Sequence record: NC_101838.1
Origin: a phage
Strand: one strand, 5' to 3'
DNA: 64,000 nucleotides
The number at the start of each line of letters is the position of its first letter. Within the stretch, counting starts at the first letter, position 1. The notes beneath the pieces were generated by a model. That model worked only from the letters and a program-made list of their open reading frames with translations. It had not been told where the DNA came from and did no database searches. The position numbers and the translations under genes are program-made. Below, piece after piece: positions 21 through 57,743 of this stretch.

Positions 21-1568
21 ATGTCTAAGATTTACGGACCGTGTTCTGAAAAGCAGAAGATGATCCTCGAAAACGATGCAGATATCTTGGTAATCGGCGG
101 TGCCGCAGGGTCTGGCAAGTCGTTCCTCTTGCAGTTGATGCCACTTAAAATTATTGATGACCCCCACAGCTCTGTGGTTATGTTCCGAAGAACAACCCCA
201 CAGTTGGAAGGTGAGGGTGGACTATGGCCTAAAGCAGTAGCTATTTATAGTGATCTGCCTGAAAACATTAAGCCAAAGTTCAGAGAGAAGGATCATAAGT
301 TCATTTTTCCACGGTTTGATCCGAACACTGGTAAGTGGGATAGAAGCAAAAAGGGAGCTGTTGTAAAATACTGCCATATGGAGTATGTACAAGATAAGCT
401 TAACCATCAGGGGCTTGAGTACACCATGGTTTGCTTCGATGAGGGCACGCAGTTCGAATGGGAGCAGATAGACTACCTGATGTCTCGTCTGCGATCTCAG
501 TCAAAGTATCCATCAAGAATGGTTATCAGCTGTAACCCCGATTCAGAACACATGCTTGCCAAACTGGTTAGATGGTGGTTGGACGATGAAGGGTATCCAG
601 ATCCGGAGAAATGCGGTAAGAAAAGATATTTTATCCGACGCGACGGTGAATTTATATGGGGAGACTCTAAAGAAGAGTTGATAGAGAAATACACCACGGT
701 TAACGGACTGGGTGTGGAGATCAAGCCAAGACCGTTGTCATTCTCGTTTATAGGCGCAACAATATTCGATAATCCTGTCTGCTTAAGAGATAACCCAGAA
801 TACCTTGCTTTCCTTGAAGGTCTGCCGGAACTGGAAAAAGCTCAGCTTCTTCATGGTAACTGGTTTGCAAAGCCTGAGGGTGCAAACTATTTTCAAAGAT
901 CTTTCCTTCGTGATGCCGATAGAGTACCCCTTGGATCAGTATCTTGCAGGGCATGGGATAAGGCAGGAACCGAGAGAACTTCCGGTAATAAATTTCCTGA
1001 CTTTACCGCCAGTATTAAGGTAAGTAAAGATAGCGACGGCTTTTATTACCTGTCCGGTGATTATTGTCCTGAGAACGTGGATGACGGGAGGTATTCCACA
1101 GGTCTGGAAGGCAAGTTCTGTAAAAAGGCTGGTGAACGAGATGTGATCATCAGGAAACAGGCGCAGTTCGATGGTGATGATTGCATAATCGTCTTCTCTG
1201 TGGACCCAGGTCAGGCAGGTAAGAGTGAGTTCTTAACCTCATCCAGATCCTTGCTCGCCGAAGGGTTCAGGGTTGAAGAAGACCCAATGCCTTCCAACAA
1301 ATCTAAACTGACAAGGTTCTCACCTTTTGCCAATCTTGCACAACAAGGAATGGTGAGGATTGTAAAATCCAGTTTCCATCCTGATACTCTGGAAGCATTT
1401 CTGACTGAACTTGAAAAATTCAACGGGGAAAGATCAACATTTAACAGAAAAGACGACTGGGCAGACTGTGTAGCTTCTGCGATTAATTTCCTGGAGAAAG
1501 AGGAGGTAGCACTTCCTTGTGTGATTCCATCAATCTCATCACCTTCTATGTTCAAGCGTTTTATCTAA
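21..1568 (+). CDS. terminase large subunit
   Basis: 515 aa; N-terminal Walker A P-loop VIGGAAGSGKS; AGGAGAGAGG RBS upstream of ATG at 21; first gene of the structural block, followed by a portal-sized ORF. Confidence 0.8.
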   Translation: MSKIYGPCSEKQKMILENDADILVIGGAAGSGKSFLLQLMPLKIIDDPHSSVVMFRRTTPQLEGEGGLWPKAVAIYSDLPENIKPKFREKDHKFIFPRFDPNTGKWDRSKKGAVVKYCHMEYVQDKLNHQGLEYTMVCFDEGTQFEWEQIDYLMSRLRSQSKYPSRMVISCNPDSEHMLAKLVRWWLDDEGYPDPEKCGKKRYFIRRDGEFIWGDSKEELIEKYTTVNGLGVEIKPRPLSFSFIGATIFDNPVCLRDNPEYLAFLEGLPELEKAQLLHGNWFAKPEGANYFQRSFLRDADRVPLGSVSCRAWDKAGTERTSGNKFPDFTASIKVSKDSDGFYYLSGDYCPENVDDGRYSTGLEGKFCKKAGERDVIIRKQAQFDGDDCIIVFSVDPGQAGKSEFLTSSRSLLAEGFRVEEDPMPSNKSKLTRFSPFANLAQQGMVRIVKSSFHPDTLEAFLTELEKFNGERSTFNRKDDWADCVASAINFLEKEEVALPCVIPSISSPSMFKRFI

Positions 1569-1669: not shown

Positions 1670-3226
1670 GTGTCCAAAAAGAACCGCAGGAAACACAACG
1701 CCACAGCCAAAACTGTGAATAAATCTGGGAACGCAGGCGCACCAACTCATAATGTTCGTATGAGTGAGATCGGTTCTGGCGCACTTTCCCAAATTATGGC
1801 AGAATCGCAATCTATGATGGTTGAGGAATTGCGTTGGCCTCAGCTGATTGCCACAGTGGAGACTATGAAATGTGATTCCACAGTTGCTACTGCCTTAGAT
1901 ACAAAATATGTTTTCATCACGAAAGCATTCAATGATTTTAAGATCCTTTATAATGTTAAAAGTGAAGACTCTAAGAAAGCTGCCGAGCTTATAGAGTATT
2001 CTTTGCGTAATTTGGCAAACCAACAAACTCTTCGAGATATTGCAAGAAGCGCAGCTACCTTTAACGAGTATGGTTTTTCACTGTTTGAGAAAGTATACCG
2101 CAGAGAGAAAGAAGGTAAATATGCCGGGATGCTTCTTATCGATAAAATTGCATTCCGACCTCAGGCCAGCCTGTCCAGATCAGAGCCGTTTGTTTTTGAT
2201 AAGAATAGTAGAACACTGACAGGTATTTATCAGTCACCTAATGCATTTCTAAACACTCAGAATGCACGCTGGGCTGGACCTCTTGCTGCAATGCCTTCAA
2301 AAGGCTTTAATGAGCCTGAAATTTTCATCCCTGCTAAAAAGCTTATGCTCATGACCCTGTCAGGAACAGAATCTAACCCTGCAGGTGTGTCACCTATGAT
2401 AGGTTGCTACAGATCTTTCCGTGAGAAAGTTCTGATTGAAAACCTTGAGGTTGTTGGCTGTTCCAAAGACCTTGGTGGTGTGCTTGAGCTGAAAATTCCT
2501 TCCAATATTTTGAACAAGGCCAGCATTGACCCGAATTCAATGGAAGGGAGAATGGTTGCAGACCTTATGCTTGACGCAGCAAACGCCCATAGTGGTGAGC
2601 AAAGTTTCTTTATACTTCCGTCTGATAGAGATAAGTCTGGTAAAGAGCTTTACTCCATGACCCTGAAGGGGGTTGACGGTATGGGTAAGCAGTATTCCAC
2701 TAAAGATTTGATTGATGCCCGTAAGAAGGCGATTCTTGACCGTTTCGGTGCTGGCTTTATTAACCTCGGTAACGATAACGTTGGATCCTTCTCTCTGTCT
2801 GAGTCAAAACAGTCTATCCATGGTCATTTTGTTCAGCGTGATATAGATATTATCACTGAAGCCTTCAATAAAGATCTTATTCCACAGCTTCTGGCATTGA
2901 ATGGTATCATCCTTGAAGATGATGATATGCCTAAACTGAAACCTGGTCTGATTGAAGAGGTGGACATGGAGAGCTTCTCCAAGTTTGTCCAGAGGATTGG
3001 TGCTGTAGGTTACTTGCCAAAAACTCCTGCAGTAATTAATAAGATTCTTGAAGTAGGCGGGTTTGATGAAAGATTTGACGAGGACATGGATCAGGAAGAG
3101 CTAATGAAGCTCTTGGGCCAGGACATCAGTAGGGCTGGCGATGGAATGGCTGCAGGATCCACTGGCAACGGCACTTCTAAGATGTCATTAACCAGAGATA
3201 ATTCCATATCCAACATGGAAAATTAA
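1670..3226 (+). CDS. portal protein (putative)
   Basis: 518 aa ORF directly downstream of terminase; GTG start with GAGGGG RBS; assignment by size and position only. Confidence 0.55.
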   Translation: MSKKNRRKHNATAKTVNKSGNAGAPTHNVRMSEIGSGALSQIMAESQSMMVEELRWPQLIATVETMKCDSTVATALDTKYVFITKAFNDFKILYNVKSEDSKKAAELIEYSLRNLANQQTLRDIARSAATFNEYGFSLFEKVYRREKEGKYAGMLLIDKIAFRPQASLSRSEPFVFDKNSRTLTGIYQSPNAFLNTQNARWAGPLAAMPSKGFNEPEIFIPAKKLMLMTLSGTESNPAGVSPMIGCYRSFREKVLIENLEVVGCSKDLGGVLELKIPSNILNKASIDPNSMEGRMVADLMLDAANAHSGEQSFFILPSDRDKSGKELYSMTLKGVDGMGKQYSTKDLIDARKKAILDRFGAGFINLGNDNVGSFSLSESKQSIHGHFVQRDIDIITEAFNKDLIPQLLALNGIILEDDDMPKLKPGLIEEVDMESFSKFVQRIGAVGYLPKTPAVINKILEVGGFDERFDEDMDQEELMKLLGQDISRAGDGMAAGSTGNGTSKMSLTRDNSISNMEN

Positions 3227-3293: not shown

Positions 3294-3713
3294 ATGCCAC
3301 AGGAAGAAATGATTTCCTACGAAATCATCTACGAACCTGACACTAAAGATGCTCACGGTGAGTGGATGAGTAAAGACACCATCAAAAAGGCTAAAGATAA
3401 CTGGGACGCAGCATACGCCGCAGGCTTAGTTTCTGAAAACCTTTTTCACTTGACCTCTACAGATGCTTTCACCATTGAAAAGACGTGGATTCAAGAAGAG
3501 TTTGATGTTGTAGTAATTGGTACTGAGCAGGTCATCAAGGCTGGCTCTTGGGTTGCTAAAGTTAAATACAATAATCCTGAATTATGGGAAGCTAAGAAGG
3601 CTGGCATTGTTGGTGGCCTAAGCATTCAGGCAACAGGTAATGTTGATGAAGAGACGGGAGAAATTACCAACGTAAATTTCGGGATCAGTGTTGTAGAAGA
3701 GGGCAATGAATAA
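3294..3713 (+). CDS. hypothetical head-assembly protein (139 aa)
   Basis: Track ORF 3246-3713 begins at a TTG that lies inside a predicted promoter; in-frame ATG at 3294 with GGGGA RBS preferred; function unknown. Confidence 0.4.
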   Translation: MPQEEMISYEIIYEPDTKDAHGEWMSKDTIKKAKDNWDAAYAAGLVSENLFHLTSTDAFTIEKTWIQEEFDVVVIGTEQVIKAGSWVAKVKYNNPELWEAKKAGIVGGLSIQATGNVDEETGEITNVNFGISVVEEGNE

Positions 3714-4693
3714 TGTCTGAAAAAACAATCACTATTAAAGAGAAGGGGATTGCCCTGTGCCATAAGGCGCAAGGTTATAGCGCTAACAACAGACCTGTAT
3801 CTCTTTTAATGAAGAGCGATCTTAAGCCTGAGCAGTTAACAGACGATATTGTTAAGGCACTTCGCCAAGTTACTGTGGAGCTGAGTTTTGAAGAATACCT
3901 GCGTCGTTTCTTCGATATGTGGTATGACGATGCTAAGGCACTGGCTCACCTGCTTGGGTTCGAGATTGAGGAAGAAGCTTGGGCAAAAGAACACCCAGAT
4001 TGGGAGTGGGCACAGGCTGATGCAGAGGCTTGTGTGCAGTGGTTAGAAGAACGTTGTGATAACGTAACCATTCACAAAGCTGCTAAAGAAGGTAAAGATT
4101 TAAGTATTGTTGACCAATACACTCTGCTGAAAACCCAACAAGTTTTTGAGCAGATGACCGCTGATCTCTTCGATGAAGAAGGGAAACTTATTAAAGCGGC
4201 ACAGGAAACCACAGAAGAAGTTGTTACAGACGCTGTGGACAATGTTGATAAATCCGCAAATACCGAGGAGAATCCGGTGGAAGACGTAACCAAGTCTCAA
4301 GAGTACCTGGACCTGCTGAAACAGTTCGAAGAACTGAAAGCTACCAATGAAAAAGCTGAAGAAATCATCAAGGCTCAGGTAGAAGTTGAAAAAGCTAAAA
4401 TGCTGGAAAAAGCTCAGGCGTTAAGCTTCACCACTGAAGAAGACCACGCATCTCTGGTCGAATTCATGCTGGATAAAGCTAACGCCCCTGTTGTTGAATT
4501 GCTGGAAAAAGCTCAAGCTCGTATTGCTGAACTGGAAGCTAAAGTTGAAAAAGCTAAAGAAGAGTTCGCAACCACAGAGCAAGGTAAAGATGGTGATGTC
4601 GTGGTGGACGACATTGCTAAATCTGCTGAAGACATTATTGCTGAAAACGTCGCTAAAGCTCTGGCTCGCGCACGTAAAGAATCCAATAAATAA
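3713..4693 (+). CDS. scaffolding protein (putative)
   Basis: 326 aa; C-terminal half is E/K/A-rich with heptad-like coiled-coil character; located between portal and capsid genes; start overlaps upstream stop (TAATG). Confidence 0.5.
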   Translation: MSEKTITIKEKGIALCHKAQGYSANNRPVSLLMKSDLKPEQLTDDIVKALRQVTVELSFEEYLRRFFDMWYDDAKALAHLLGFEIEEEAWAKEHPDWEWAQADAEACVQWLEERCDNVTIHKAAKEGKDLSIVDQYTLLKTQQVFEQMTADLFDEEGKLIKAAQETTEEVVTDAVDNVDKSANTEENPVEDVTKSQEYLDLLKQFEELKATNEKAEEIIKAQVEVEKAKMLEKAQALSFTTEEDHASLVEFMLDKANAPVVELLEKAQARIAELEAKVEKAKEEFATTEQGKDGDVVVDDIAKSAEDIIAENVAKALARARKESNK

Positions 4694-4714
4694 TTTGTTT
4701 AATAGGGGAAAATA

Positions 4715-5089
4715 ATGATCACCACTCAATATTCTGATATCGTGCTCGGCAAAGTTGATTCTAGCGATGCAGGTTTCAACTTTAAAGAAATTGAAATCAC
4801 TCTCACTGCTGATCACGTTGCTGGCGCAGTAGTTACCAAAACTGGCGCTCTGGCTAATAAAGATGGCACAGACACATTTGGTGTTCTGGTTGACCGTGCA
4901 CTTCTGCCGGACTCTGCTGGCAAAGTTAATCTGGCAGAGCCTCTGACTGTGGGTCAGAAATACAAATTAGTCGTTGCTGTTCGTGGCGTTACTTTCGCTA
5001 AAAAACACCTGAAAGTAGCCAGCGGCGAAGCTGCACCTGCTGCAGTTCTGGAAGCCCTCGAAGCCAAAGGCAACAAAGTTCAGGAATAA
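4715..5089 (+). CDS. head decoration or auxiliary capsid protein (putative)
   Basis: 124 aa, immediately upstream of major capsid gene; strongly optimised codon usage typical of abundant virion proteins. Confidence 0.35.
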   Translation: MITTQYSDIVLGKVDSSDAGFNFKEIEITLTADHVAGAVVTKTGALANKDGTDTFGVLVDRALLPDSAGKVNLAEPLTVGQKYKLVVAVRGVTFAKKHLKVASGEAAPAAVLEALEAKGNKVQE

Positions 5090-5135
5090 TCCTAGATCTT
5101 TGGGAAACAAATTTTAAAGTTATTTGGAGAAAATA

Positions 5136-6137
5136 ATGCGTAAAGATGATTTTGGTATTGTTGATTTAGGTGCTACTCTTGAACTGGTTCCACGCCAATA
5201 TCGCCTGATCACTGGTATGGATCTGTTTGAAACCCATCTCGGCACCTCAACAATCGCACAGATCGAACGTGTTGATGAAGTGGTTGGTGATATCGCCGCT
5301 CGCCGTCGTGGTGGTGAACGTAACTACGTTGATAGCGAACGTGCACAGATCAAAAACCTGAACATCCCGTTCTTCCCACTGGATAAGGGCATCACTGCTG
5401 CGGACGTTCAGAACTTCCGTCGCTACTTCACCCCAGATGCACCGAAAACTGTGCAAGACGTGGTTACTCGTGTAGTTCGTCGTATTCGTCTGAGCCACGA
5501 AACCCTGCGTGAAAAAGCTCTTTTTTCTGCAATTCTGGGTAAATCCTATGCGCCTGGCGACACCACCTGTCAGTATGACTATTACAAACTGTGGGGCGTT
5601 TCCCAGAAATCTATCGAAATCGATCCTAAAAATGCAGCACAGGACCCGATGGAAGTAATCGAAGATGCACGTCTGCACATTGCTCTGCAGGCTGGTGACA
5701 ACGCTGGTGCTTACAACATCATCGCGCTGTGCTCTCCGAAATTCTTCTCAGCACTGGTCCATCACCCGCTGGTAGAGCTGGCTTACACCTACTACAGCTC
5801 TTCTCAGGAACCGCTGCGTCGTCGTCTGGGTGCAGGTGGTGAGCAGAGCATTTACCGTGTGTTTGAACACAAGGGTATGACCTTCATCGAAGACATCTCT
5901 GGCAACATTCCGGACGGTGAGGCTCGTCTGATGCCTATGGGTATCGATCAGATGTTCCAGCTGCACTTTGCTCCGGCTGACACTCTGGAAGATGCAAACA
6001 CCCCAGCTCAAGAGCTGTATATGTGGTATAAACACTCTGCCTACCTGAGAGAACAGAAAATCGAATCTGAAACCTCTATGCTGGCAGTTAACACCCGTCC
6101 AGAGCTGGTTGTTAAAGTAACTCTGAAAAGTGAATAA
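5136..6137 (+). CDS. major capsid protein (lambda gpE-like fold suspected)
   Basis: 333 aa; GGAGA RBS 5 nt upstream of ATG 5136 (track start 5124 is a TTG); highly optimised codons (CTG, CGT, GGT, CCG); followed by strong intrinsic terminator; position after scaffold/decoration genes. Confidence 0.6.
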   Translation: MRKDDFGIVDLGATLELVPRQYRLITGMDLFETHLGTSTIAQIERVDEVVGDIAARRRGGERNYVDSERAQIKNLNIPFFPLDKGITAADVQNFRRYFTPDAPKTVQDVVTRVVRRIRLSHETLREKALFSAILGKSYAPGDTTCQYDYYKLWGVSQKSIEIDPKNAAQDPMEVIEDARLHIALQAGDNAGAYNIIALCSPKFFSALVHHPLVELAYTYYSSSQEPLRRRLGAGGEQSIYRVFEHKGMTFIEDISGNIPDGEARLMPMGIDQMFQLHFAPADTLEDANTPAQELYMWYKHSAYLREQKIESETSMLAVNTRPELVVKVTLKSE

Positions 6138-33912: not shown

Positions 33913-35984
33913 TGGCAACAGCTGTTTTTAAACCTTACCGTGATTACTCTACAATGGCTGCACAGTTTCATTACCGCACAGTTCAGGATACTGCCGTTCC
34001 TGGTAGAGATTATGATCATGTTGAGGGCGATGTAACTATCCCAGTTGGGGCAACCAGTATTGAGATCCCAGTGGAAATTGTTGACAAATTACCCAACAGG
34101 TTGCCAAGAAGCTTCTTTATGGAGTTTTCATCAAAATCTCAAGGAGTGATGATTGGAACACAAAGGGCGAAATGTACAATAGTTTCAGATGAGAATCTTG
34201 ACAGGATATCTTGGGATACTGTTGAGGAGAGAATGTTTCACCCAAGATATTGGGTTACAACCACTCAGCAGACTGAAAGTACCTGTATTGTTGCAGATAA
34301 CAACTGTTGTATTAACCGTTTAGTGTCAAGAACATATGGAGGTATGGCTGGGTGCATTTGGGAAACAGTTGACAAGTATGACCATTTCGGTATTGGGTTT
34401 GATGATCACTATGAGATGAGAAACACCAAGCTTTGGTTCAGAATGTCAATAACCAACGCCAGCAACTTCTCCACTCCTGAAAAGATGATTATGACTGTAG
34501 ACCTTGTTGATGGCACAATCATCTATGTTCCTTTAGCTCAATATGCTGTCAGCATCTCAGAGGATAAAAATGTTGCAGAAATTCATATTGATTTTGAGGA
34601 CTGCGTCGGGATGGACCAGAACAACAACATGATGGGTGTTGATCCTCGGCAGGTGAGAAGGATTTTAATACCACTTATGCCTAAAGACTGGGTAAGTAAT
34701 AGCACAGATCCAAGAACGGAAAATGTAGAGTGTGAGTTGCGCCTAGATCTGCTTCAGCCAGACACAGGCTGGAAAATGATGCAACTTAATAATATCCAGG
34801 TGAGAGAGCACGACGTTGGGATCTGCACCGCATATGACGATATGTGGAACGTGTCCCCTTTAAGGGTGTTGAACAATATCAAGCGTCTGGGCTATACCGG
34901 AACCATAAACCATTATGTTGGTATGAGTCATTATTATGACTACACATGGTCAGGAACCCAATGGTCTATAAACAGAACAGGAGCGCTAAACGCTGCAGCT
35001 TATAAATGGCATGATGATTTTATGTACAATGCCAAACGACATAACTTCGACGTTATGCAATCTGTAAGTTTTGAGCTTTTCAGCGATGCCTGCCCGTTGG
35101 AATGGACCCAAAGAGACTGGAACGATAACTACGCTAAAACAGGGTATACACCTTGTAGCTACCTCCTGTCTCCAACCATTGAAGAGGGTATGAATTTCCT
35201 TACTGCAGTATTTAAGAATTTTGCATCAGCCGCTATGAGAAACAACCTGCCAGTGATTATGCAGGTTGGTGAACCGTGGTGGTGGTACAATACCGATACT
35301 CGTAGACCTTGTATTTATGATTACCCTACAAAACAGGCGTTTTATGATGAGACAGGCGAGTATGCATTAGATATTGGGACTATTGACGATCCTAAAACTG
35401 GCGGTGTTTACGATAAGTATGTAGCATTTTGTCGTGGTAAGCTTGGCGCTCGTATTGCTGCTATTTCAAAGGCAATAAAGGCACACGCTGCATCAGCTCA
35501 GATGACAGCTCTGCTGTTTTTCCCAACCATTATGGAAACCGAGCTTACGCAAAAGCTTAACCTTGCTGACCAATATAAAAAGGAAGCAGGTGCTCTTGAT
35601 TTCTTCTGCACCGAGTGCTACGATTGGGTGATGCAGGGAGGTATTGAAAAGGCAAAAGAGTCTGTAAACATACCTATCGTTAAGTTAGGTTGGCAACCGT
35701 CTGAAATACAATACCTTGCAGGGTTCGTTCCTAGTAAAGAGCTTGCTCCGGTATATGGTTACGACCCAACTAGGAATTACCAAGAATTTTTATGGAGATG
35801 TATTTGCGGAAACATGGCAACTATAGAGTATAGATACCCTGAGGTAAAACAGTATGTGTGGGCATACCCGCAAGTAATGTCTGACAGCATCACTGTTACC
35901 GCTAGAGATTCTACCGTGCTTCATATGGGGCAGGTTGCTCTGAAAGGGTATGTAGAAGATGTTGTCCCGCCAGACTTCTCATAA
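33912..35984 (+). CDS. structural protein with N-terminal Calx-beta-like domain
   Basis: 690 aa; N-terminal motif TAVPGRDYDHVEGDVTIPVGATSIEIPVEIVDK typical of Calx-beta domains. Confidence 0.4.
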   Translation: MATAVFKPYRDYSTMAAQFHYRTVQDTAVPGRDYDHVEGDVTIPVGATSIEIPVEIVDKLPNRLPRSFFMEFSSKSQGVMIGTQRAKCTIVSDENLDRISWDTVEERMFHPRYWVTTTQQTESTCIVADNNCCINRLVSRTYGGMAGCIWETVDKYDHFGIGFDDHYEMRNTKLWFRMSITNASNFSTPEKMIMTVDLVDGTIIYVPLAQYAVSISEDKNVAEIHIDFEDCVGMDQNNNMMGVDPRQVRRILIPLMPKDWVSNSTDPRTENVECELRLDLLQPDTGWKMMQLNNIQVREHDVGICTAYDDMWNVSPLRVLNNIKRLGYTGTINHYVGMSHYYDYTWSGTQWSINRTGALNAAAYKWHDDFMYNAKRHNFDVMQSVSFELFSDACPLEWTQRDWNDNYAKTGYTPCSYLLSPTIEEGMNFLTAVFKNFASAAMRNNLPVIMQVGEPWWWYNTDTRRPCIYDYPTKQAFYDETGEYALDIGTIDDPKTGGVYDKYVAFCRGKLGARIAAISKAIKAHAASAQMTALLFFPTIMETELTQKLNLADQYKKEAGALDFFCTECYDWVMQGGIEKAKESVNIPIVKLGWQPSEIQYLAGFVPSKELAPVYGYDPTRNYQEFLWRCICGNMATIEYRYPEVKQYVWAYPQVMSDSITVTARDSTVLHMGQVALKGYVEDVVPPDFS

Positions 35985-39382: not shown

Positions 39383-41128
39383 ATGGCGCAAGACATGACA
39401 AGCTTTGAGCAGGCGGTAGATCAAGTAATTGTTGATTCTGAACGTTTGCACTTGGTTGTCAACGGTAACGCTGTGGATGAAGTTGTCGTAGAGGATGGAA
39501 CCACCATCCCTACGGTACGAAAAGCCATGCTTGACAACCTTTATTTTAAAACGCCACCGATCCCTTGGGCGTATGGTGCATCCACAACAGTTTTTAACCA
39601 GCTGTACGAGTTTAAAGGGGACACAGGCCCTCAGTGGTGGTACGCTCCCGCAGCATCAAAATCTAACCCGGTTAGAATGCCAGCAGATCCTTCACAATCT
39701 CCAAACTGGAGATTATATACCGACTCTGCAGTAATGGCAAAATACTACGCAAAACTTAACAGCCCGAGGTTCGAAGGTGACCCACGAGTACCTACACCTC
39801 CAATGGACGATAAGTCAGAGTCCATAGCAAACACAGAGTTTGTTGTTGACTATGTTGATAGCATATTTAAAGCCATGGAGGGGATGAAAGTTACTGTAGG
39901 GTCTTTGGTGGTAAAAGGTCTTACAGAACTCGCTAACACTATAGTTGGTGGCACCCTTACCTTACATGGACCTGTTAATGGGGCAGATTCTACTGCACGC
40001 TTTAGGAATCTAATCCTCACGGCAAATACTTCTACACTTACTTTTGCGTGGAGCGATCCTAAGCATGCAGACTGGAGAAGTACAGAGCTGCAACCTCATG
40101 AAGTGTCCACCCACAGGGTTATAGCTGACACTATAACTTCTGGGAAACCAGTGGCTAATAATAACGATGTGCATTTTGATGGTCTGGGTAATAACTTTTT
40201 TGACTACGTGTACATTCGTGGTAATGCCATGAAGGCAGCAACCGAACCGACATTGCAGGTCGATGGGACCACCAGGGTTAAGAACCTTGAGGTAACAGGT
40301 ACCGTTACAGGGATAACATACTCTGTCGATGGCACCATGATCTACCCTAGCTATATTGAAAGCACGGGTGATGCATTGATAAATGGCGATTTGGAGGTTG
40401 GCGGGTCTGTAGTTATTCGAGGTACAGCCTCTATCCAAAATATAGCTCTGAATACTCTAAGAGTCAATGAGCGTGCAACTTTTGAAGGAGAAGGGCTTAC
40501 AGCCAATAAAGGTACAATTACCGAGCTAACCACCACCACTTTAACTGCAACAACTGCAAACTCTGAAAACTGCAACATTACCAGAAACTTGCAGGTAAAT
40601 GGAGATGTTAGTTTAAACGCCGCAGGGACTGGCACCACCTACCTTCACAACCTTGAAATATCTGGCACAGTGACCGGGTGGCTGCCAGACTTCTCTAATG
40701 TCAACTTTGTCTGTAATGGCATTAACTCCAGTGGTAAGATAACCACCTCTCAAGAAATTGAGGCGGGTAAAACCATTACTGCCCCTACTTTCCACACAGG
40801 AAAGGTAGATTTTGACTTAGAGGAGGTTGACGCGTCCAGTGGGACATGGACACCTAACGGGCAGGCCAGCATGTATGTTGTCCACGCGAAAGGGGATTTT
40901 ACAATAGGACAGTGGCCTGGGACATCAGCGGAAGATAAACCTTATCCATTCACTGCAGTTATCTATGTCATTCAGGATGCTGTAGGTCACAACGTGACTT
41001 TGCACGATAAGTATGCTATCCTGTCGGCAACACCTGTTATTAACAACAAGGCTAACAGTGTTACCTTGCTGCAATTAACGTATTGTGGTGTTGGTGATAT
41101 TGTAGACGTAGTAATTGCACAACGTTAA
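39383..41128 (+). CDS. tail fiber protein (beta-helix-like repeats)
   Basis: 581 aa; repeated Thr/Gly/Asn-rich segments (LEVTGTVTG, LEISGTVTG, VNGDVSLN); AGGAGA RBS; followed by terminator. Confidence 0.5.
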   Translation: MAQDMTSFEQAVDQVIVDSERLHLVVNGNAVDEVVVEDGTTIPTVRKAMLDNLYFKTPPIPWAYGASTTVFNQLYEFKGDTGPQWWYAPAASKSNPVRMPADPSQSPNWRLYTDSAVMAKYYAKLNSPRFEGDPRVPTPPMDDKSESIANTEFVVDYVDSIFKAMEGMKVTVGSLVVKGLTELANTIVGGTLTLHGPVNGADSTARFRNLILTANTSTLTFAWSDPKHADWRSTELQPHEVSTHRVIADTITSGKPVANNNDVHFDGLGNNFFDYVYIRGNAMKAATEPTLQVDGTTRVKNLEVTGTVTGITYSVDGTMIYPSYIESTGDALINGDLEVGGSVVIRGTASIQNIALNTLRVNERATFEGEGLTANKGTITELTTTTLTATTANSENCNITRNLQVNGDVSLNAAGTGTTYLHNLEISGTVTGWLPDFSNVNFVCNGINSSGKITTSQEIEAGKTITAPTFHTGKVDFDLEEVDASSGTWTPNGQASMYVVHAKGDFTIGQWPGTSAEDKPYPFTAVIYVIQDAVGHNVTLHDKYAILSATPVINNKANSVTLLQLTYCGVGDIVDVVIAQR

Positions 41129-41135
41129 TATATCT

Positions 41136-41162
41136 AACCGCTCCTGACGGGGCGGTTTTCTT
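41136..41162 (+). terminator. intrinsic terminator (probably leaky; no promoter before next gene)
   Basis: AACCGCTCC / GGGGCGGTT stem, TGAC loop, TTTTCTT tail. Confidence 0.55.
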
Positions 41163-41176
41163 ACCTGGAGAACACA

Positions 41177-41422
41177 ATGCTTCCAATCCCTTTGCTAAAA
41201 CTTGGTCGTCATTTCCTCGATAAGAGGGGTGGAATTAAGGAACTTGCTGTTCTGTCATACCCAATAGACAACAGTGATGGTACAAGCAACACAGTATCCT
41301 ATGTAAATAGCTTAGCTATACTTTTTGATGATGGTCAGCTTAATATTACTGGCTATAATAGGTTCGGAGAGTGTCGGACTGGAGATCTTGATACAATAAA
41401 CTATCCTAATGAGGCAGCTTAG
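41177..41422 (+). CDS. 81-codon ORF in frame with downstream giant fiber ORF (probable N-terminal segment)
   Basis: ATG 41177 with GGAG RBS; ends at TAG 41420-41422; same frame as 41567-46804 with no other stop in between. Confidence 0.45.
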   Translation: MLPIPLLKLGRHFLDKRGGIKELAVLSYPIDNSDGTSNTVSYVNSLAILFDDGQLNITGYNRFGECRTGDLDTINYPNEAA

Positions 41423-41566
41423 AACGTAGACCATGTTTGGAGAGCTGACCGTGCATTTGTAATCCGCACATTCGATAATAAATTTTTCTATATTGGTTGC
41501 ACAGCTGGTCTTATCGGATCGGAGGCAGCAGGTGGAAACGATGTTTGTGTCAGAGAGTGGACACCT

Positions 41567-44500
41567 TTGCCGGAACAGATCGTAACAGGGTTGCATTTGG
41601 ACACCCATCCTGAGAGACTTGTTGAAGTAATGGGTGGCGTAAACAATACAGTGTGGGTAATTGCTGCACCAGAGGCTGATGGTATGCTTCACCTGTACGG
41701 CTCTGGCAATAATACTTACGGCTCTCTTCATGTTGACAAAAGTCAACACGCTACTCCAGTTAAGATCGGTGAAACATCTGAAAGTCCAGAGACAGGTCCT
41801 TGGAAAAATCCAAGAATTAATTGTGAAGTTCATGACAACTCGGTTATTTTTGGTGGTCCTAACGGATTCTGGATTGCAGGTTACGATTTCTTAAGAAATA
41901 ACAGCAAAAACACACTAGTTTATCCAGCCGAGCATGTGACTCTTGACCAGTTTAAAGGCATCCCGGTGGGCGAGACATGGAAAGGGTTCATGTGTGGACC
42001 TAATGGTGCAATTATAGCCACAGAAAGGATGCACAAACCTGATGACCAACAGCTTGTTAACGTATTCTACGGGCAAGACGTCTGGGGAGATGACACATGG
42101 CGTTCCTTAAATATCACCTACACCCATGAGGTGATAATGGCTCGTGGATACGGCACAAGTGGCATTTTCTTCAATAATGGCACCAAACAGTATCGTGGCT
42201 TCTCTCGCAATCTGTGCAATGATATTGGTGCACAATCTGCAAACAACAGTCCTAGGGCTAATTTTATTCACTATCAGGCTCTGGCTACGGCTAAATACGT
42301 CGAGCAACGGATGCCAGTAAGCTGGACAGAAAGTGTTTATTTCCAGGGTATCCACAGAGAAGGTTTCTTAGGGACCTTTACTGTTGTTAATGGCAAACTT
42401 TGGTGGTCAGGCATCCCAAGGGGAAGTTTTGCAGGCTCTAATAACCTGTTTGGCGGCAGACTTAATAGTCAGGGGTTCACAGAGGTTCCTGAGAATTGGT
42501 ATAAAAATGTCCCAGTAGACAGTTGGGGCGTTGATGATATTTTCGACGTTAATGGTGTTAGTAGTGTTAGCAATATCTACATTGGTGACACGGTCAAGAT
42601 GAAATTGAAGCCTCAGCCAGAGGGGGCTACGTTCATTATTGACAAGATTGAGTTGGTAAATGCTGCAGGTACGGTTGTTACAGATGCAAATTACCAATTC
42701 TCCACCAACTGGAACCACGGTGGGGCCAACGAAGTTGTTGTTACCCAGTATAACAGAAATGTTAACAGACGTGGCCTGTACTCTGTAAAAATAACCTATC
42801 ATGACAAGCATGGCACAGGCAGAACCCATACGACAAGAACTTTGAACTGGAACACCATAGTTCCTGCGTATCCGTCCAACGGCAAGTGGCATACTGTCGG
42901 TAGAAACAAACAGTTCCATGTCAACGATACTGTATACTTCGGGCTTAACGCAGCTCAACCTGTTGTAGAAGGCGATACATCGTATATGGTACGACTCCAT
43001 AGAATGGATGCCGGGTCTGTAACCTACGATGTGACTCAAGAGATCTACGATCAGAGACGTACCACGTATGACAATGTTGTGAAAACACAAGCCTTGTGGG
43101 AGTTCAACCCTAACGGCAGAGGCGGTAAAATGTTGCAGGTCAACGAGCAAAACGGAACATCGTTGACTGTCCATGAACATCCAGATCCTTGGCCTGATCC
43201 TGGAAAACCTAACTCTGGGGCTCGTACACTGAAAATTGTCAGCCATGATGCAGGATATTTCGGAATACGCTGGGAAGCTACAGTAAGATATGTCGACGGG
43301 ACAACAAACAACATAGGGATTACACTTGGCGGCACTAGTGAAGATAACTCGCTGAAAATTGCCTACACGCCCAGAGGTATCTCTATTGATAATATGGATG
43401 TTGTTCGCAATGGTTACGGCGATGTGAATGTCAAAGTTACTCTTGGCGAACATCTTGGTGGGGAAAGGATCATCATGTATGCCTTTGATCATGATCCACG
43501 CACCAATGGAACTTATGCAAATCAGGCATGGAGTTACCTGATAAATGCACCTGAGCCGAATACTAAAGAGTTCTACTATGGTATGAAGCGAGATGTGTGC
43601 AAGAAAACAGGAACACATGACTGGATTGCTATCTGCGTTAAAGATGAGCGCACAGCTTGGGATGAACCTGTTAACAGATGGTTCATAGGTATTCCTACCA
43701 GAAGTGATAAGTATGTCGCAGAATATATTGTATGCATGGGTGGTACCAACCTGAACATGTGTTGGAACGAGGATGCAAACAAATACTCTGATTATGACTA
43801 TATGAGGGATTACTCTTGTAATCAGTGGTTTAACCAATCAACAGGATACCCTCCACGTCAGGCGAGAGTAAACCCTGCAATCTTCACAGATACGCAGGTT
43901 TTCTTGACAAAACAGGCCAACGAGGTTCAGACCTTCAAGAATAAATACGATCCTAACAAGTGGTTCTACAACTGTTACGGCGCATTTTTCTGGGGACCTG
44001 GTGAGTTACCTGGTGGAGGATCTTGCTTGAATGAGGCAACTTACGCCAGTGACTACATCATGGGGCAGGTCAAGAAGTATAAGATAATCCCCGGTCCTGA
44101 GACTCTGGGCAATGCCGTTGACCCTTATATCATCATGACTGCACTGAGATCAAACATGGACGGGACATCCATGTCTATGCAAATTCCGGTAACAAACGGG
44201 TACAAACGTGTTGTGATGATCATTAAGTGCGACTTAATAGGTAAACAAGTTCTTGCAGAAAACGGGACATCCACACATCCTTTTGAGATTGCTCTGCACT
44301 ATCAGTTTGCTGACTCGCCTTTTGCAGGTGATAAGAGAATATCTGATACAGATACACAGCGTTGTAAGAAAGTATTGTTGGGTGCAGGTTGGTGGTGGTA
44401 TGAGTTTGATTTAACAGACAAATTCACCGACACATCTAAAGTTGTAACAGGACTTCGTCTAGACCTTGGCGAGAACATGCACAAAGCTGTTTGTGATGGC

Positions 44501-46804
44501 ACCTATGGTGACCCTACAATATACCTAAAATATATTTCTTTTGAGCATCCGGAAGATGTTGTCTATGGTCCAAAACTGAGATTGTTTGGCAGTTGGATTG
44601 CAAAAGATAGGGTAGGCATGGGTAAGAAGGTAAGAGGGTTCTTGGTTGATGCAGGAACAGAAGACATGCTGGTTAATGCAGTATGGCCTGAATTACCTGG
44701 GACTCAGTGGGACAACTCAGCCAAATCTATAAACTGGTTTAACATTCATAGGGCCATGTGGACCACTAACTGCTACTTGTGGAGAGAGCTTAACGATCAG
44801 GCCTTTGGATTCAGCGATGGTAGAAGGATGGCGATCATTTGCTGGACAACACTGCAAAGATGTTATGACCATGACTATGAGATTGGGGGCAGGGCATGGA
44901 AAAATATCAGAGATAGAATCATAACCAATTTTGCAGACGACAACGGTGGTGGAGCACATAACTTTGGCACAAGCCGACTCATCCATTTGAACGGATCCTC
45001 AGCCTACAAGAAAGAAGGTTACTCTGGGTCTATGATCGAGTGGGGTCTGGTGAAAGATGCTCGTGTATTGATGGGCCAGCAACTTGCTGCTGCAATAGGT
45101 CCTAGTGCAGTGCAGTCTGCTAAACCAGCGTGGTTCGATATCCCATTATGGTCCTCTGGAACACCAGGGGCTGCTGCAATCAACCCTACCACTGGGGATC
45201 TGGAAATCTCCTGGGAAGACCTGAAGCAGGTCGGTGGCTGGGATAAGACCGGGTACCAGGTGCAGTGGTGGAGGGCTGACGGATCTTTAGCCGCTGATGA
45301 GTTTGTTAAGGACAATTTCTACACTATGTCCTCTGCAAAAGCACAGGAATTGTTCGGTCAGGCAACTCCGTCAACGATCACCATGTCTATGTGCTGTAAA
45401 GACAACAGGACTGGAGCTTTGGGGCCAAGGGTTGCTAAAGTTTTCTCAGGTATTAAATGGAATCTACCTGTCCAAAGTATTTCATGGAAGCAAATAGGTG
45501 ATAACAAGCTGCTGGTTACCCCTGCCTGTCAGTTCAACGCAACTCTTAACGTTGATCCTGCTGTTGCGGCAAACTCAGCTAAAGCTTCTGACTTCTCTGT
45601 GTCTAACACTGCTATGGCAGATGTGAGGAAGATTGACACGCTGAACGCCAGAATTACCTGTAAAAACACTTATGGCACATTCCAAATCATCAACAACTTC
45701 ACAGATGCTGATTCTAAGGTAGTGAGGACAGCAAGCCAGACTCTGAGTTTAGGAACTCTGGCCTATGCGGCCCTGATCACCGAGCAGTCGGCAACACTCC
45801 AAGGAGGTGGTGTAGGCAAGTCCATTGCAACACCTGTGTGGAAGCCAAATGAGTGGGTTGTGTTTGATTTGACTGTGGACTTCTCCAGCGATAATAACTG
45901 GACATGGGTAAGGAATTGTTTGTCACAATTGATGGGCGGTCCAAGCTCCGTTAGTGATAGTCACGACTCTACTGACCCGAGTGTGTTCCAGGTAGGTAAA
46001 ACTCACCCAGAGACTGGAGAAACGTTGCCTGACAGGAAGTATGCGTTGGTTTGCATCTCTTACGGGAAGGCAGATGTCACATTCTCAGGGACACACACTT
46101 ATAACGGAACTTACAACTTCTCAAGGAAGTATAGTCTCAAAGCAGGGAACATTATAGACGAGGTCGGTGTGCTGTATAATCCGGGCAACGGCATAGGGAT
46201 TGTGGGCGGTAAACTGCAGATGCAGGAACCTTCTATCACCCCTTCCAACGTATCCGGGATTAGAAAGACTTGGGAAAGTAGTAATACCAACATTGCAACA
46301 GTGGATGCCACCACAGGGCTGGTAACATTTAAAGCTACTGGGAATGTCACCATAAAGTTTGTAGTTAGAGATGATGCAGGCCGCAAAACGTCTTCAACAT
46401 CGTTTACTGTCAGACAGATGGCACCTCAGTGGTTTATTTGGGAAGGAAATCCTCTTGACGGGGCTTACCCTAGACCTGCAGGAACGTCCAATATGAGGGT
46501 CTTTACCGGTCCGGTCATGAACAATCCGACCACAACCACCAACCCTACATTTTTTGGTGCTTACATACCTGAAATTATTGGCCTACCAAGGAACCAGATA
46601 CAACTGCTTTTCGGAGCAGGTGTTGATGGTCTAGCCACTTTTGGGTACAGTGACAACATTGATGCAGCCAGAAGCTCGGGTTGGATTGGATTTAAGTTTC
46701 AGTGGAACCCTGGTGGTAGAACATTAGGTGTTGCAAGCATAGGTGTTATGCTACCTGGTAACCAGCAATACCATCTCGAAGCTTATACAAACTTCCCTAG
46801 TTAA
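41567..46804 (+). CDS. giant tail fiber/host-range protein (1745 aa as annotated from a TTG start)
   Basis: Long ORF with Gly/Asn/Trp-rich repeats; no in-frame ATG or GTG between upstream TAG and annotated TTG start; followed by bidirectional terminator. Confidence 0.55.
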   Translation: MPEQIVTGLHLDTHPERLVEVMGGVNNTVWVIAAPEADGMLHLYGSGNNTYGSLHVDKSQHATPVKIGETSESPETGPWKNPRINCEVHDNSVIFGGPNGFWIAGYDFLRNNSKNTLVYPAEHVTLDQFKGIPVGETWKGFMCGPNGAIIATERMHKPDDQQLVNVFYGQDVWGDDTWRSLNITYTHEVIMARGYGTSGIFFNNGTKQYRGFSRNLCNDIGAQSANNSPRANFIHYQALATAKYVEQRMPVSWTESVYFQGIHREGFLGTFTVVNGKLWWSGIPRGSFAGSNNLFGGRLNSQGFTEVPENWYKNVPVDSWGVDDIFDVNGVSSVSNIYIGDTVKMKLKPQPEGATFIIDKIELVNAAGTVVTDANYQFSTNWNHGGANEVVVTQYNRNVNRRGLYSVKITYHDKHGTGRTHTTRTLNWNTIVPAYPSNGKWHTVGRNKQFHVNDTVYFGLNAAQPVVEGDTSYMVRLHRMDAGSVTYDVTQEIYDQRRTTYDNVVKTQALWEFNPNGRGGKMLQVNEQNGTSLTVHEHPDPWPDPGKPNSGARTLKIVSHDAGYFGIRWEATVRYVDGTTNNIGITLGGTSEDNSLKIAYTPRGISIDNMDVVRNGYGDVNVKVTLGEHLGGERIIMYAFDHDPRTNGTYANQAWSYLINAPEPNTKEFYYGMKRDVCKKTGTHDWIAICVKDERTAWDEPVNRWFIGIPTRSDKYVAEYIVCMGGTNLNMCWNEDANKYSDYDYMRDYSCNQWFNQSTGYPPRQARVNPAIFTDTQVFLTKQANEVQTFKNKYDPNKWFYNCYGAFFWGPGELPGGGSCLNEATYASDYIMGQVKKYKIIPGPETLGNAVDPYIIMTALRSNMDGTSMSMQIPVTNGYKRVVMIIKCDLIGKQVLAENGTSTHPFEIALHYQFADSPFAGDKRISDTDTQRCKKVLLGAGWWWYEFDLTDKFTDTSKVVTGLRLDLGENMHKAVCDGTYGDPTIYLKYISFEHPEDVVYGPKLRLFGSWIAKDRVGMGKKVRGFLVDAGTEDMLVNAVWPELPGTQWDNSAKSINWFNIHRAMWTTNCYLWRELNDQAFGFSDGRRMAIICWTTLQRCYDHDYEIGGRAWKNIRDRIITNFADDNGGGAHNFGTSRLIHLNGSSAYKKEGYSGSMIEWGLVKDARVLMGQQLAAAIGPSAVQSAKPAWFDIPLWSSGTPGAAAINPTTGDLEISWEDLKQVGGWDKTGYQVQWWRADGSLAADEFVKDNFYTMSSAKAQELFGQATPSTITMSMCCKDNRTGALGPRVAKVFSGIKWNLPVQSISWKQIGDNKLLVTPACQFNATLNVDPAVAANSAKASDFSVSNTAMADVRKIDTLNARITCKNTYGTFQIINNFTDADSKVVRTASQTLSLGTLAYAALITEQSATLQGGGVGKSIATPVWKPNEWVVFDLTVDFSSDNNWTWVRNCLSQLMGGPSSVSDSHDSTDPSVFQVGKTHPETGETLPDRKYALVCISYGKADVTFSGTHTYNGTYNFSRKYSLKAGNIIDEVGVLYNPGNGIGIVGGKLQMQEPSITPSNVSGIRKTWESSNTNIATVDATTGLVTFKATGNVTIKFVVRDDAGRKTSSTSFTVRQMAPQWFIWEGNPLDGAYPRPAGTSNMRVFTGPVMNNPTTTTNPTFFGAYIPEIIGLPRNQIQLLFGAGVDGLATFGYSDNIDAARSSGWIGFKFQWNPGGRTLGVASIGVMLPGNQQYHLEAYTNFPS

Positions 46805-46816
46805 CAGGAGGCAAAT

Positions 46817-46846
46817 AAAAAGGGGCCAGACGGCCCCTTTCTTTTT
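46817..46846. terminator. bidirectional intrinsic terminator between convergent late and early blocks
   Basis: AAAGGGGCC / GGCCCCTTT stem with AGAC loop, A-tract upstream and T-tract downstream. Confidence 0.75.
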
Positions 46847-46850
46847 ATAA

Positions 46851-47051
46851 TTAGTAATATTCCCAACACGACCCATCTTCAGACGGCTGGACACGTTTAC
46901 CTTCATGATCGACATAGGTGTAACCACAGCCTTCACAGATAACAGGGGCCGCATAACCTTCCTTCCACTGGTCCTCTGTGATCAGTCCTTTCAGATCTCC
47001 GCAGTCACGACCAAACAACTCTTCAGAACAATCTTTGCAAAAATCAGCCAT
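46851..47051 (-). CDS. small Cys-rich zinc-ribbon-like protein
   Basis: 66 aa with CxxC...C...CxxC...C pattern (CKDC, CEGC); GAGGA RBS. Confidence 0.4.
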   Translation of the reverse strand: MADFCKDCSEELFGRDCGDLKGLITEDQWKEGYAAPVICEGCGYTYVDHEGKRVQPSEDGSCWEYY

Positions 47052-52556: not shown

Positions 52557-53597
52557 TTATTTAACGTGTTTGAAAATACCTGCCAACTCGGTCATTGTCA
52601 TGCGGGTGGTCTTCATAAGATCTGTCATAGCTTTCTCCATAATTGGAGATACTACCATAAAGTTTCCTTTAGTGAAACCTTTATTCCAGTCGGTCACCAA
52701 CAGGGGTTTAAGTCCAGCTCCAAGACGTTCACCAGTTAAAGCACAGCATTTGCGAATATACGAACTCTTAAATTGGCTGAATGACAGATCAACTTTCATA
52801 CCTACATCGTAGAACGTTTGACAATAGAAAGTGTAAGCTTTGGCAATCTCAACATCATCAGGTAGTGCAGGAACCTCTTCTGTAAGCTCCTCTTCGACCT
52901 CCTGAGTCTCTTTTTCCTCTTCATGCACCTGTTGCGTCATTTCTTCAATCTCTTCTGTGATAGGCTCGTTTACAATGTCGGAAATGTGCTTCTTGGGTGC
53001 ACGATAAGTAACTTTAGACATCGGTAGCATATCTTCCTCCTCTTCTTCGTCAAAGAGTGCTAGTTTATCCTCTTCCGTTCCATATTGCAAGATGAAATCT
53101 TCAAAAGTATAATCACCTTTCAATTTCTCCATACGCTCTTCGCTCAGGTGGAGCATCATCTGCTGGACAATTTTTCGATCAGTTTCGTCTTTAATCAAGA
53201 CTGCAGTCTTTTTATCTACCAGACAGTCCTTTAGAGAGTTGCATCTCAATCCCACCACACAACAGTTATCAACCGCATAAGGACCTTCATCATCTATCCG
53301 CTCCAGGGATGGGTAGAAAGGATTCCCCAGCCCGTTTTCATCTGTGTGCATGTCAAAAGGTATAAGGGTATAGTCGCATACTCCATCTCCTAAAAGTTTT
53401 TTACCAAATAGGAGGTATTCTTCCCATGACAGGTCGAACTCTATATCTCGTTTCCGTGCGTTATTCTGTTTGCGTCTATATTTTTTGAGCAAGCGCTCTA
53501 ACTCTTCTGGTGTATAATATTTTTCAAGATTCATGAGTCGTCTCTCGTGCTCTGTAAGTGAAGAAATCGTATCAATTGTCTCAACAGATGTCAACAT
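52557..53597 (-). CDS. Endonuclease VII/HNH-like zinc-binding domain protein with acidic linker and C-terminal domain
   Basis: N-terminal region GDGVCDYTLIPFD...ERIDDEGPYAVDNCCVVGLRCN resembles EndoVII-type fold (recalled); acidic linker DEEEEED; internal Met preceded by SD-like GGAGGAAG lies in a 27-bp inverted repeat; ATG 53597 preferred over track TTG 53600. Confidence 0.4.
   Translation of the reverse strand: MLTSVETIDTISSLTEHERRLMNLEKYYTPEELERLLKKYRRKQNNARKRDIEFDLSWEEYLLFGKKLLGDGVCDYTLIPFDMHTDENGLGNPFYPSLERIDDEGPYAVDNCCVVGLRCNSLKDCLVDKKTAVLIKDETDRKIVQQMMLHLSEERMEKLKGDYTFEDFILQYGTEEDKLALFDEEEEEDMLPMSKVTYRAPKKHISDIVNEPITEEIEEMTQQVHEEEKETQEVEEELTEEVPALPDDVEIAKAYTFYCQTFYDVGMKVDLSFSQFKSSYIRKCCALTGERLGAGLKPLLVTDWNKGFTKGNFMVVSPIMEKAMTDLMKTTRMTMTELAGIFKHVK
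52998..53024. repeat. 27-bp inverted repeat, left copy
   Basis: Exact reverse complement of 54862-54888 (CCGATGTCTAAAGTTACTTATCGTGCA); overlaps an in-frame Met of the minus-strand ORF. Confidence 0.85.
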
Positions 53598-55875: not shown

Positions 55876-56169
55876 ATGCCACTTAAAAGAGTAATAAACA
55901 TGTTATACCAGAAACACGAACTTTGTGCAGAAAAAGAGTTAAATTTTGACAAAGTTATCCACAGATATTGTTATGGAAAAACCGGAAGACAATTAAGAAG
56001 ATGCACTCCAGCATTCTTTCACCCCAGCAGGCGACTAAGCCCTGAAGAAGCAACAGCAGAAAGGGTTGCATACAACTGGGAAGTTGTGTACGATATTGAC
56101 AGATCCGATGTGACATCTGTTTTGGAAAACTTTGAAAACACTTACACACAAGTAGAGGACTTTTACTAA
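55876..56169 (+). CDS. hypothetical protein
   Basis: 97 aa; stop overlaps start of AAA+ gene. Confidence 0.35.
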   Translation: MPLKRVINMLYQKHELCAEKELNFDKVIHRYCYGKTGRQLRRCTPAFFHPSRRLSPEEATAERVAYNWEVVYDIDRSDVTSVLENFENTYTQVEDFY

Positions 56170-57362: not shown

Positions 57363-57743
57363 ATGGCTAAAGTAGGTAAGCGGGGAAATTACCGGGTGGT
57401 ATTGACCGAGGAGCCGGAGAAGGAGTACGAATGCAGCTCCACTTGCGTGATCGATATCCGAGAAAAAGATGTAGATGAAATCTGGTTTAAAATATTAGAC
57501 GCTTGCGACAGCAGTGATTATTTCTTCATCTATGTCAACGATAAGGCTGGATTCTTCCATGACGACGGAGAGTTGCCGTATGAAATCTATGAACTTGTAG
57601 AGGCTTGCCATCGTGGAGATGCGGAGTTGTTTGGCCTACGGCTGAAAAGCGGTAAATTCTTCTATCAAGATGAGTGCATGAATCTTCATAACTTTGTAGA
57701 GGGAACTTGCAACGATGGAGAGATTTTGGCACACTACGATTAA
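57363..57743 (+). CDS. hypothetical protein
   Basis: 126 aa; AGGGGG RBS; followed by terminator. Confidence 0.35.
   Translation: MAKVGKRGNYRVVLTEEPEKEYECSSTCVIDIREKDVDEIWFKILDACDSSDYFFIYVNDKAGFFHDDGELPYEIYELVEACHRGDAELFGLRLKSGKFFYQDECMNLHNFVEGTCNDGEILAHYD

Follow-up and report, generated by a model that had tools for sequence, protein, structure and literature searches.

Escherichia phage nomine (MN850649) is an rV5-like Vequintavirus with a genome of 137,991 bp. The stretch analysed here, a 64,000-nucleotide portion of that genome (sequence record NC_101838.1) referred to as the window, has its best megablast match in phage JeffSchatz (Bas55), with 97.9% identity over 24 kb. From position 41177 the window carries a lateral tail fibre gene of the rV5 gp27 type, which GenBank presents as two open reading frames (ORFs), nomine_39 and nomine_40 (RefSeq copies YP_011697937 and YP_011697938). 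Judged by comparison with related phages, these are the two halves of one nonsense-mutated fibre gene, divided by a single amber codon (TAG). The division is an ordinary knockout of a fibre that is not needed on laboratory Escherichia coli, and it is not a recoding signal. Nomine was isolated on E. coli K-12 MG1655 by two successive overnight liquid enrichments; the lysate (sample 23A, Lemvig), which contained two phages, was sequenced on an Illumina NextSeq without plaque purification, at 255x coverage (Olsen et al. 2020, PMC7552041).

Organization of the fibre gene in nomine

The signals and fragments of the gene are as follows.

41177..41179, + strand: ATG, true start codon of the gene (gp27-type lateral tail fibre); annotated coding sequence (CDS) start in relatives
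41177..41422, + strand: 5' fragment of 81 sense codons plus the premature TAG (GenBank nomine_39, QHR76207.1)
41420..41422, + strand: premature amber TAG, codon 82; the mutated base is 41421, A in place of the G of relatives (TGG, Trp)
41423..46804, + strand: rest of the same gene, 1793 intact sense codons plus TAA (46802-46804), collinear with JeffSchatz bas55_0041 without gaps
41567..41569, + strand: TTG used as start by ORF callers and GenBank (nomine_40, QHR76208.1); an internal Leu codon in relatives
41167..41170, + strand: Shine-Dalgarno (SD) sequence GGAG, 6 nt before the ATG; its anti-SD duplex, at -6.4 kcal/mol, is inside the range of real starts

When positions 41177-46804 are read in one frame (1875 codons), the TAG at codon 82 is the sole internal stop. 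The ORF that runs from TTG 41567 to 46804 has 1745 codons and is annotated in GenBank as a 1745-aa protein. An earlier note on this DNA, made from the letters and a list of ORFs, had proposed that the ORFs at 41177-41422 and 41567-46804 encode one protein, and its description of the locus holds in every particular. The two starts are 390 nt apart and thus in the same frame; one-frame translation gives the TAG at 41420-41422 as the only stop between them; and the 48 codons of 41423-41566 are open, with no in-frame ATG or GTG, as the note had said, and no TTG before 41567 either. The upstream ORF does have a GGAG ribosome-binding site and an ATG, the downstream ORF only a TTG start. The note was also right that TAG is a rare stop in the window, where the 66 genes end in TAA (52), TGA (10) or TAG (4). 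It had called the open 48-codon stretch suggestive, which stands; the accompanying chance of about 10 percent was slightly generous, as the value computed from the base composition of the window is 5.4%. For an uninterrupted run of all 1793 codons downstream, the same composition gives a probability of about 5e-48.

Continuity of the gene in related phages

In rV5-like relatives the gene is annotated as a single CDS of 5628-5637 nt (1875-1878 codons) that begins at the ATG equivalent to 41177. This ATG is the CDS start in JeffSchatz, rV5, HdK5, WalterGehring, AlexBoehm, JohannBauhin, MaxBurger, and MaxTheCat, and it is also the CDS start of the orthologues in phAPEC8-like phages and in Seunavirus. 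The label "lateral tail fiber protein with intimin domain" is used in JeffSchatz (bas55_0041), WalterGehring (bas51_0041), AlexBoehm, JohannBauhin, MaxBurger (bas54_0041), and MaxTheCat, and the same gene is labelled an Ig-like domain protein in rV5 (gp027) and HdK5. A single profile, PHROG 15684 (1878 positions), spans both nomine ORFs: the 81-aa piece matches positions 1-81 (E = 6.5e-47), and the remainder of the gene matches positions 83-1877. The order of genes, in which the fibre gene follows a gp28-type glycosidase fibre gene and precedes convergent minus-strand genes, is common to JeffSchatz, rV5, HdK5, WalterGehring, magaca, naswa, inoa, and navn.

The N-terminal 199 residues give one unbroken tblastn match in 193 of 212 phage records. 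This set includes phAPEC8-like (~40% identity) and Seunavirus (~30%) phages, and in both groups the aligned part starts where a tail protein gene is annotated to start. Because it runs continuously through the site even in these phages, a conserved small gene ending here is excluded. A general search for homologous proteins returned only three matches, too few for an alignment. The earlier note had suggested aligning orthologous fibre genes, and the ORF is indeed continuous in the relatives, with one CDS and one PHROG profile across both pieces, in agreement with its proposal of one gene of about 1875 codons. It had also named an outcome that would speak for two genes, a small independent gene in relatives that ends at the equivalent site, with 41423-41566 unconserved; no relative has such a gene, and the amino-acid sequence that the 48 codons encode is conserved, in other genera too.

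The amber codon is private and recent

In the records compared, the G-to-A change at 41421 (Trp82, TGG to TAG) is private to the nomine genome, and the near identity of its closest relatives marks it as recent. Among 50,697 phage records, none is identical to an 81-nt query with the TAG at its centre. Of the 63 records that it does match, 62 are one mismatch away, and these 62 are matched at >=99% when the same 81-mer carries TGG; none of the 63 has TAG at this site. Codon 82 is TGG in all eight relative loci read directly, and tryptophan is present at residue 82 in 14 of 14 full-length members of the 90% protein cluster, the closest of which (P0014) differs from nomine by three residues besides W82. 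The option of a recent nonsense mutation, one of several that the earlier note had listed, is thus borne out by relatives with TGG in an unbroken CDS. No complete E. coli genome was matched by the 81-mer in megablast, and a 36-mer pattern with TAG or NNN at the codon found nothing in IMG/VR, GTDB genomes, or JGI metagenomes, collections that lack close relatives at the site and are therefore uninformative.

The closest known allele is that of WalterGehring, which differs from nomine at 7 of 5628 nt (99.9% nucleotide identity), one of them being the G-to-A change at 41421; outside the fibre gene the two phages differ by about 3-4%. Codon 82 is also the only difference between nomine and JeffSchatz in the first 700 codons. 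Besides the TAG, 203 codons differ between these two, all between codons ~700 and ~1700. In the more distant comparison with rV5, the first 740 codons contain 155 synonymous and 26 non-synonymous codon differences, and 165 of 203 nucleotide changes are at third positions. This synonymous excess points to purifying selection on the frame on both sides of the TAG.

Several records touch on this site. The record HCN3189136.1 (P0014, a third-party annotation under "Escherichia coli") holds an intact 1875-aa copy on a 137,991-bp record, the same length as nomine, which may be a coincidence or a database cross-reference. CP057073.1, a PLSDB "plasmid" of 137,565 bp from E. coli of cattle faeces that is filed as non-mobilizable, is probably a phage genome; its fibre gene site at 57597-57677 has one mismatch to the TAG 81-mer, as in the TGG-bearing records. 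A 911-bp Logan contig (ERR3941088) that encodes exactly an 81-aa product was considered as a second instance and rejected, as it ends at "TG" and has no second TAG.

Domains and dispensability of the fibre

Three regions can be delimited within the protein.

41300..41773, + strand: N-terminal region of RCC1-like repeats, residues ~42-199, with the TAG inside it (PF25390, phrog_4219, PF00415)
43574..45077, + strand: allelically variable middle of the fibre (codons ~800-1300), where the JeffSchatz differences are concentrated
46220..46375, + strand: bacterial Ig-like (Big_2, intimin-like) domain near the C-terminus (PF02368, E = 1.6e-8, above the Pfam cut-off)

The repeat-like motifs that the earlier note had seen on both sides of the TAG can now be identified as RCC1-like repeats. 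On the close homologue P0001, PF25390 covers residues 45-199 with E = 3.8e-4, below the Pfam cut-off, and phrog_4219 ("regulator of chromosome condensation") covers residues 42-115; PF00415 is above the Pfam cut-off in phAPEC8-like and Seunavirus orthologues (EF1-1, KE22). In the PDB, the C-terminal region is weakly matched by chains of intimin and S-layer proteins. AlphaFold2, run without an alignment on P0001 (557 aa), gave no confident fold (pLDDT 38.7).

The BASEL paper (PMC8594841) places the rV5 gene for gp27 last among the large lateral tail fibre genes and notes that its alleles vary moderately; this variation fits the gathering of the JeffSchatz differences in codons ~800-1300. In phage LL12, gp27 is similar to the N-terminal part of phi92 gp150, which is predicted to be a tail spike (PMC7229145). 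That this N-terminal part is shared among proteins with differing distal parts suggests that it may be a virion-attachment module. The rV5 proteomics text consulted lists the fibre proteins gp30, 32, 33, 41, and 43 and makes no mention of gp27, and in cryo-electron microscopy of Bas49 and Bas54 no more than three fibres could be resolved close to the baseplate.

According to the HIDEN-SEQ preprint (10.1101/2025.11.20.689424), disruptive transposon insertions in the MaxBurger fibre gene, bas54_0041, are tolerated on E. coli K-12, and clinical isolates make some fibre genes conditionally essential. Since bas54_0041 is confirmed here as the orthologue of the nomine gene, its tolerance of insertions indicates that the gene is dispensable both for infecting K-12 and for making infectious virions. 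The other dispensable fibre genes are bas54_0026, 0027, 0028, and 0031. Residue 82 itself is variable at greater distances, being Thr or Gln in other genera. Because Trp82 is not conserved, a supE or supF host might be predicted to restore a working fibre in nomine.

Recurrent lesions in the same gene

The gp27-type gene is disrupted in four of the 12 Vequintavirus species of Olsen et al., namely nomine, magaca, naswa, and ime; the lysates of that study were sequenced following two overnight enrichments in liquid culture on E. coli K-12, a rough host. In magaca (MN850612) a TAC-to-TAG change at codon 617 makes a second amber; naswa (MN850595) lacks one G of a GGGG run at alignment column 2284; and ime (MN850576) has a 2-nt deletion (AT) at columns 3155-3156. 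Alma (OV101294) has lost one T at column 624. Together with nomine, five genomes thus have five private lesions: two ambers, two 1-nt deletions, and one 2-nt deletion. The gene is intact in the other eight species of Olsen et al.: nom, isim, naam, nomo, pangalan, and nimi (by annotation), and inoa and navn. Among the plaque-isolated BASEL relatives, all 11 have a single CDS and none of the 11 has a lesion. The structural modules of magaca and naswa, queried with 46 JeffSchatz proteins, are otherwise intact with few exceptions: a terL intron, allelic differences in one fibre, and, in magaca, one small hypothetical gene with a frameshift.

The recurrence of lesions in this gene after enrichment on K-12 is the one point here of some wider interest. 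It is conceivable, if doubtful, that the nomine amber is one case of a recurrent knock-out of the gp27-type fibre, driven by positive selection where O-antigen or capsule is lacking, or reflecting on and off alleles in nature.

Broken or shortened copies are also found in other records. Public contigs of 49-132 kb (P0005-P0009, Logan/ENA) encode five truncated N-terminal products of 72, 81, 91, 101, and 135 aa; one 81-aa Logan/ENA product belongs to a V18-type allele and may represent an independent stop at the same codon. In V18 itself (NC_041937, 6001-8022) an in-frame deletion removes about residues 86-315, most of the RCC1-like region, and keeps Trp82; the gene is further divided into four annotated CDS. 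In APECc02 (NC_041869, 1278-3502) the gene is in at least three or four CDS, with frameshifts from about codon 115 that look like sequencing errors.

Consequences of the mutation and alternative explanations

It is judged quite probable that a recent private nonsense mutation (TGG Trp82 to TAG) inactivates the gp27-type fibre gene in nomine. Translation would start at ATG 41177 and end after 81 residues; as the stop falls inside the RCC1-like region, the product would be a domain fragment. The remaining 1793 codons would be left essentially untranslated, with trace spontaneous readthrough only and no credible re-initiation site. Early termination should cause no polarity, because only convergent genes, on the minus strand, come next. 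Virions would then be assembled without this one of several side fibres, and the phage would be viable because the fibre is dispensable on K-12. Growth on K-12 would be normal, and the range on natural hosts might be narrower. Some points weigh against this account. The absence of the fibre from the nomine virion is deduced from DNA; the call at 41421 is taken from a consensus, and the lysate behind it, with its two phages, had undergone no plaque purification; nomine's own tRNA cluster is outside the window, so that a phage suppressor is judged from the relative JeffSchatz only; and MG1655 is taken as a non-suppressor from its genotype.

The TAG is probably a real mutation rather than an error. 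Were it a sequencing, assembly, or consensus artefact, or a minority variant, the phage would have TGG and make the full fibre, which is unlikely but deserves attention: the lesion is a single base change in a background otherwise identical to relatives over 2.1 kb, the sequenced material was a crude two-phage enrichment, and the split records of APECc02 and V18 resemble sequencing errors. Against an artefact, coverage is 255x with Illumina reads, the change is a substitution and not a homopolymer indel, and the equivalents of the 65 other JeffSchatz genes that lie wholly in the window are full-length in nomine, with no stop and no frameshift. The sequencing error that the earlier note had raised as a candidate is disfavoured on these grounds. 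The three sister genomes, moreover, have different lesions in the same dispensable gene and structural modules that are otherwise clean. Such gathering of lesions in one gene is what mutation in a tolerant gene predicts, and it argues against random base-calling error.

An amber suppressor of the host or phage, or efficient readthrough, would yield useful amounts of full fibre with a substitution at residue 82, and this is improbable. Bossi, and Miller and Albertini, are said to have found in 1983 that nonsense suppression in E. coli is favoured by an A after the stop, and the base after this stop is an A (TAGA). The variation of residue 82 in distant genera implies that a substitution might be tolerated, the relatives have a tRNA-Tyr(GUA) that a single mutation would turn into a suppressor, and nothing at all interrupts the downstream ORF. 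A very recent mutation would, however, be equally expected to leave that ORF intact. ARAGORN found no tRNA in the 64-kb window, and none of the seven JeffSchatz tRNAs (Arg-tct, Tyr-gta, Ser-tga, Thr-tgt, Met/Ile-cat, Pro-tgg, and one odd tRNA, clustered at 134.4-135.2 kb, beyond the range of the window) has a CUA anticodon. MG1655 is not known to carry an amber suppressor. Conservation of the stop in relatives is a defining feature of programmed readthrough, and here 62 of 63 records have TGG in flanks identical to those of the TAG; the 100 nt of RNA that begin with the TAG have a minimum free energy of -17.6 kcal/mol compared with a shuffle mean of -18.7 kcal/mol (z = +0.36), so no unusual structure is present. 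Reassignment of TAG would entail many in-frame TAGs and no use of TAG as a terminator, whereas only one of 66 window genes, the gp27-type gene, has an internal in-frame TAG and four end in TAG, each aligned over its full length to its JeffSchatz orthologue with the stop at the orthologous position. The readthrough or suppression that the earlier note had entertained finds no footing in these results.

Restart of translation at TTG 41567 or at a later ATG or GTG, giving a functional fibre truncated at the N-terminus, is very improbable, despite the listing and annotation of the 1745-codon ORF as a protein (nomine_40). The SD duplex of TTG 41567 reaches -3.8 kcal/mol against a median of -7.3 for 66 real starts; the nine in-frame candidates in the 200 codons after the TAG range only from -2.2 to -5.8 kcal/mol; and none of the 66 window genes starts with TTG. 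The first candidate is 144 nt past the stop, probably too far for coupled re-initiation. A restart product would also lack at least 130 N-terminal residues, the part common to phAPEC8-like phages, Seunavirus, and phi92 gp150 and the presumed attachment module. Downstream restart, which the earlier note had considered, thus fares poorly, and the TTG start stems from mechanical ORF calling and is not a credible initiation site. That the locus comprises two genuine separate genes, one for an 81-aa protein and a fibre gene from 41567, has virtually no likelihood; the GenBank annotation of nomine is all that speaks for it, and comparison refutes it, as no relative has a boundary here, all have a sense codon at position 82, and one PHROG spans both pieces.

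Neighbouring features and related records

Two hairpins border the gene.

41138..41162, + strand: intrinsic terminator hairpin CCGCTCC-TGAC-GGGGCGG then TTTTCTT, read from the sequence
46818..46850, strand not assigned: GC-rich hairpin with A and T runs on its flanks, read from the sequence, between the gp27-type gene and the convergent minus-strand genes

The upstream hairpin separates the preceding fibre gene (39383-41128) from the gp27-type gene. A simple consensus terminator scan did not list it, and HdK5 carries an annotated terminator at the equivalent position. The gp27-type gene, the largest of the lateral tail fibre genes, is the last of the plus-strand structural block, and minus-strand genes follow from 46854-47051 onward. 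Two candidates around the TAG were set aside: a minus-strand ORF at 41312-41833 (173 aa) that has a stop in rV5 and whose only two rV5 differences are non-synonymous, and a sigma-70-like match at 41332-41359 that is within chance expectation for the region.

Elsewhere in the window, the stretch 3713-6134 (head scaffold, decoration, and major capsid) has 75-87% protein identity to JeffSchatz, with flanks at 99-100%, and is, from this pattern of identity, a mosaic replacement of the head module. Other stretches divergent from JeffSchatz are at 55900-56166 (79%) and 52560-53534 (91%, gapped). The terL gene is uninterrupted in nomine (window 21-1568) and in JeffSchatz, and an insertion of about 350 bp splits the copies of magaca and naswa, matching the intron reported for LL12 (PMC6658697). 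In the JeffSchatz tRNA locus, ARAGORN gives a tRNA-Ser(tga) at 34677-34767 that is unannotated in GenBank, and at 34866-34964 a 99-nt tRNA with a four-base anticodon call that GenBank annotates as a 97-nt "tRNA-Lys". Some 15-19 "Campylobacter phage" records (host C. jejuni; MG065635, MG065654, MG065658, MG065661, MG065666, MG065682, and others) are about 92-96% identical to E. coli Vequintaviruses in this region and may be mislabelled or contaminant coliphages.

Implications and comparison with known systems

For annotation, the 1745-aa TTG-start "protein" should not be propagated as a real product. Nomine, predicted to be without one side fibre, carries a natural knock-out allele, and a near-identical intact gene is available in WalterGehring; swaps of the two alleles could be used to find the binding target of the fibre. 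The recurrence of lesions in this gene after enrichment on K-12 is also a more general caution: determinants of host range may already be missing from phages obtained on rough laboratory strains.

The gene itself matches the rV5 gp27 or BASEL intimin-domain fibre (PHROG 15684) in position, start codon, length of 1875 codons, and possession of Big_2 and RCC1-like regions. It differs in having TAG where the others have TGG at codon 82, and in its division into two ORFs in the GenBank record.

Programmed readthrough is known from cases such as the A1 protein of Q-beta, and reassignment of TAG with suppressor tRNAs from crAss-like and Lak phages. Nomine resembles these systems in having an in-frame stop between two pieces of one frame. 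It is unlike them in that the stop is unconserved, only one of its 66 genes has an in-frame TAG, TAG terminates four others, and no suppressor tRNA was found in the window or in JeffSchatz. For classical amber (UAG) mutants of phages, grown on supD, supE, or supF hosts, TGG-to-TAG change is a typical route, and nomine likewise has one in-frame TAG made by a single base change from a sense codon. Those mutants are conditional-lethal, whereas the nomine mutation is spontaneous, affects a non-essential gene, and was recovered on a host not known to suppress, which makes it a plain null allele.

The closest analogy is the stf gene of lambda PaPa. Hendrix and Duda reportedly described in 1992 how a frameshift splits this side fibre gene into two ORFs, with loss of the side fibres. 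In both phages a point lesion in a dispensable side-fibre gene leaves two adjacent ORFs and is seen only against relatives. Lambda PaPa grows well on E. coli K-12 despite its lesion, and nomine was likewise recovered on K-12; the nomine lesion is derived, as the relatives are intact, and the gene is dispensable on K-12 according to the HIDEN-SEQ literature. The two differ in that lambda PaPa acquired a frameshift and underwent decades of laboratory passage, whereas nomine has a nonsense substitution, went through two overnight enrichments, and is known here from its sequence.

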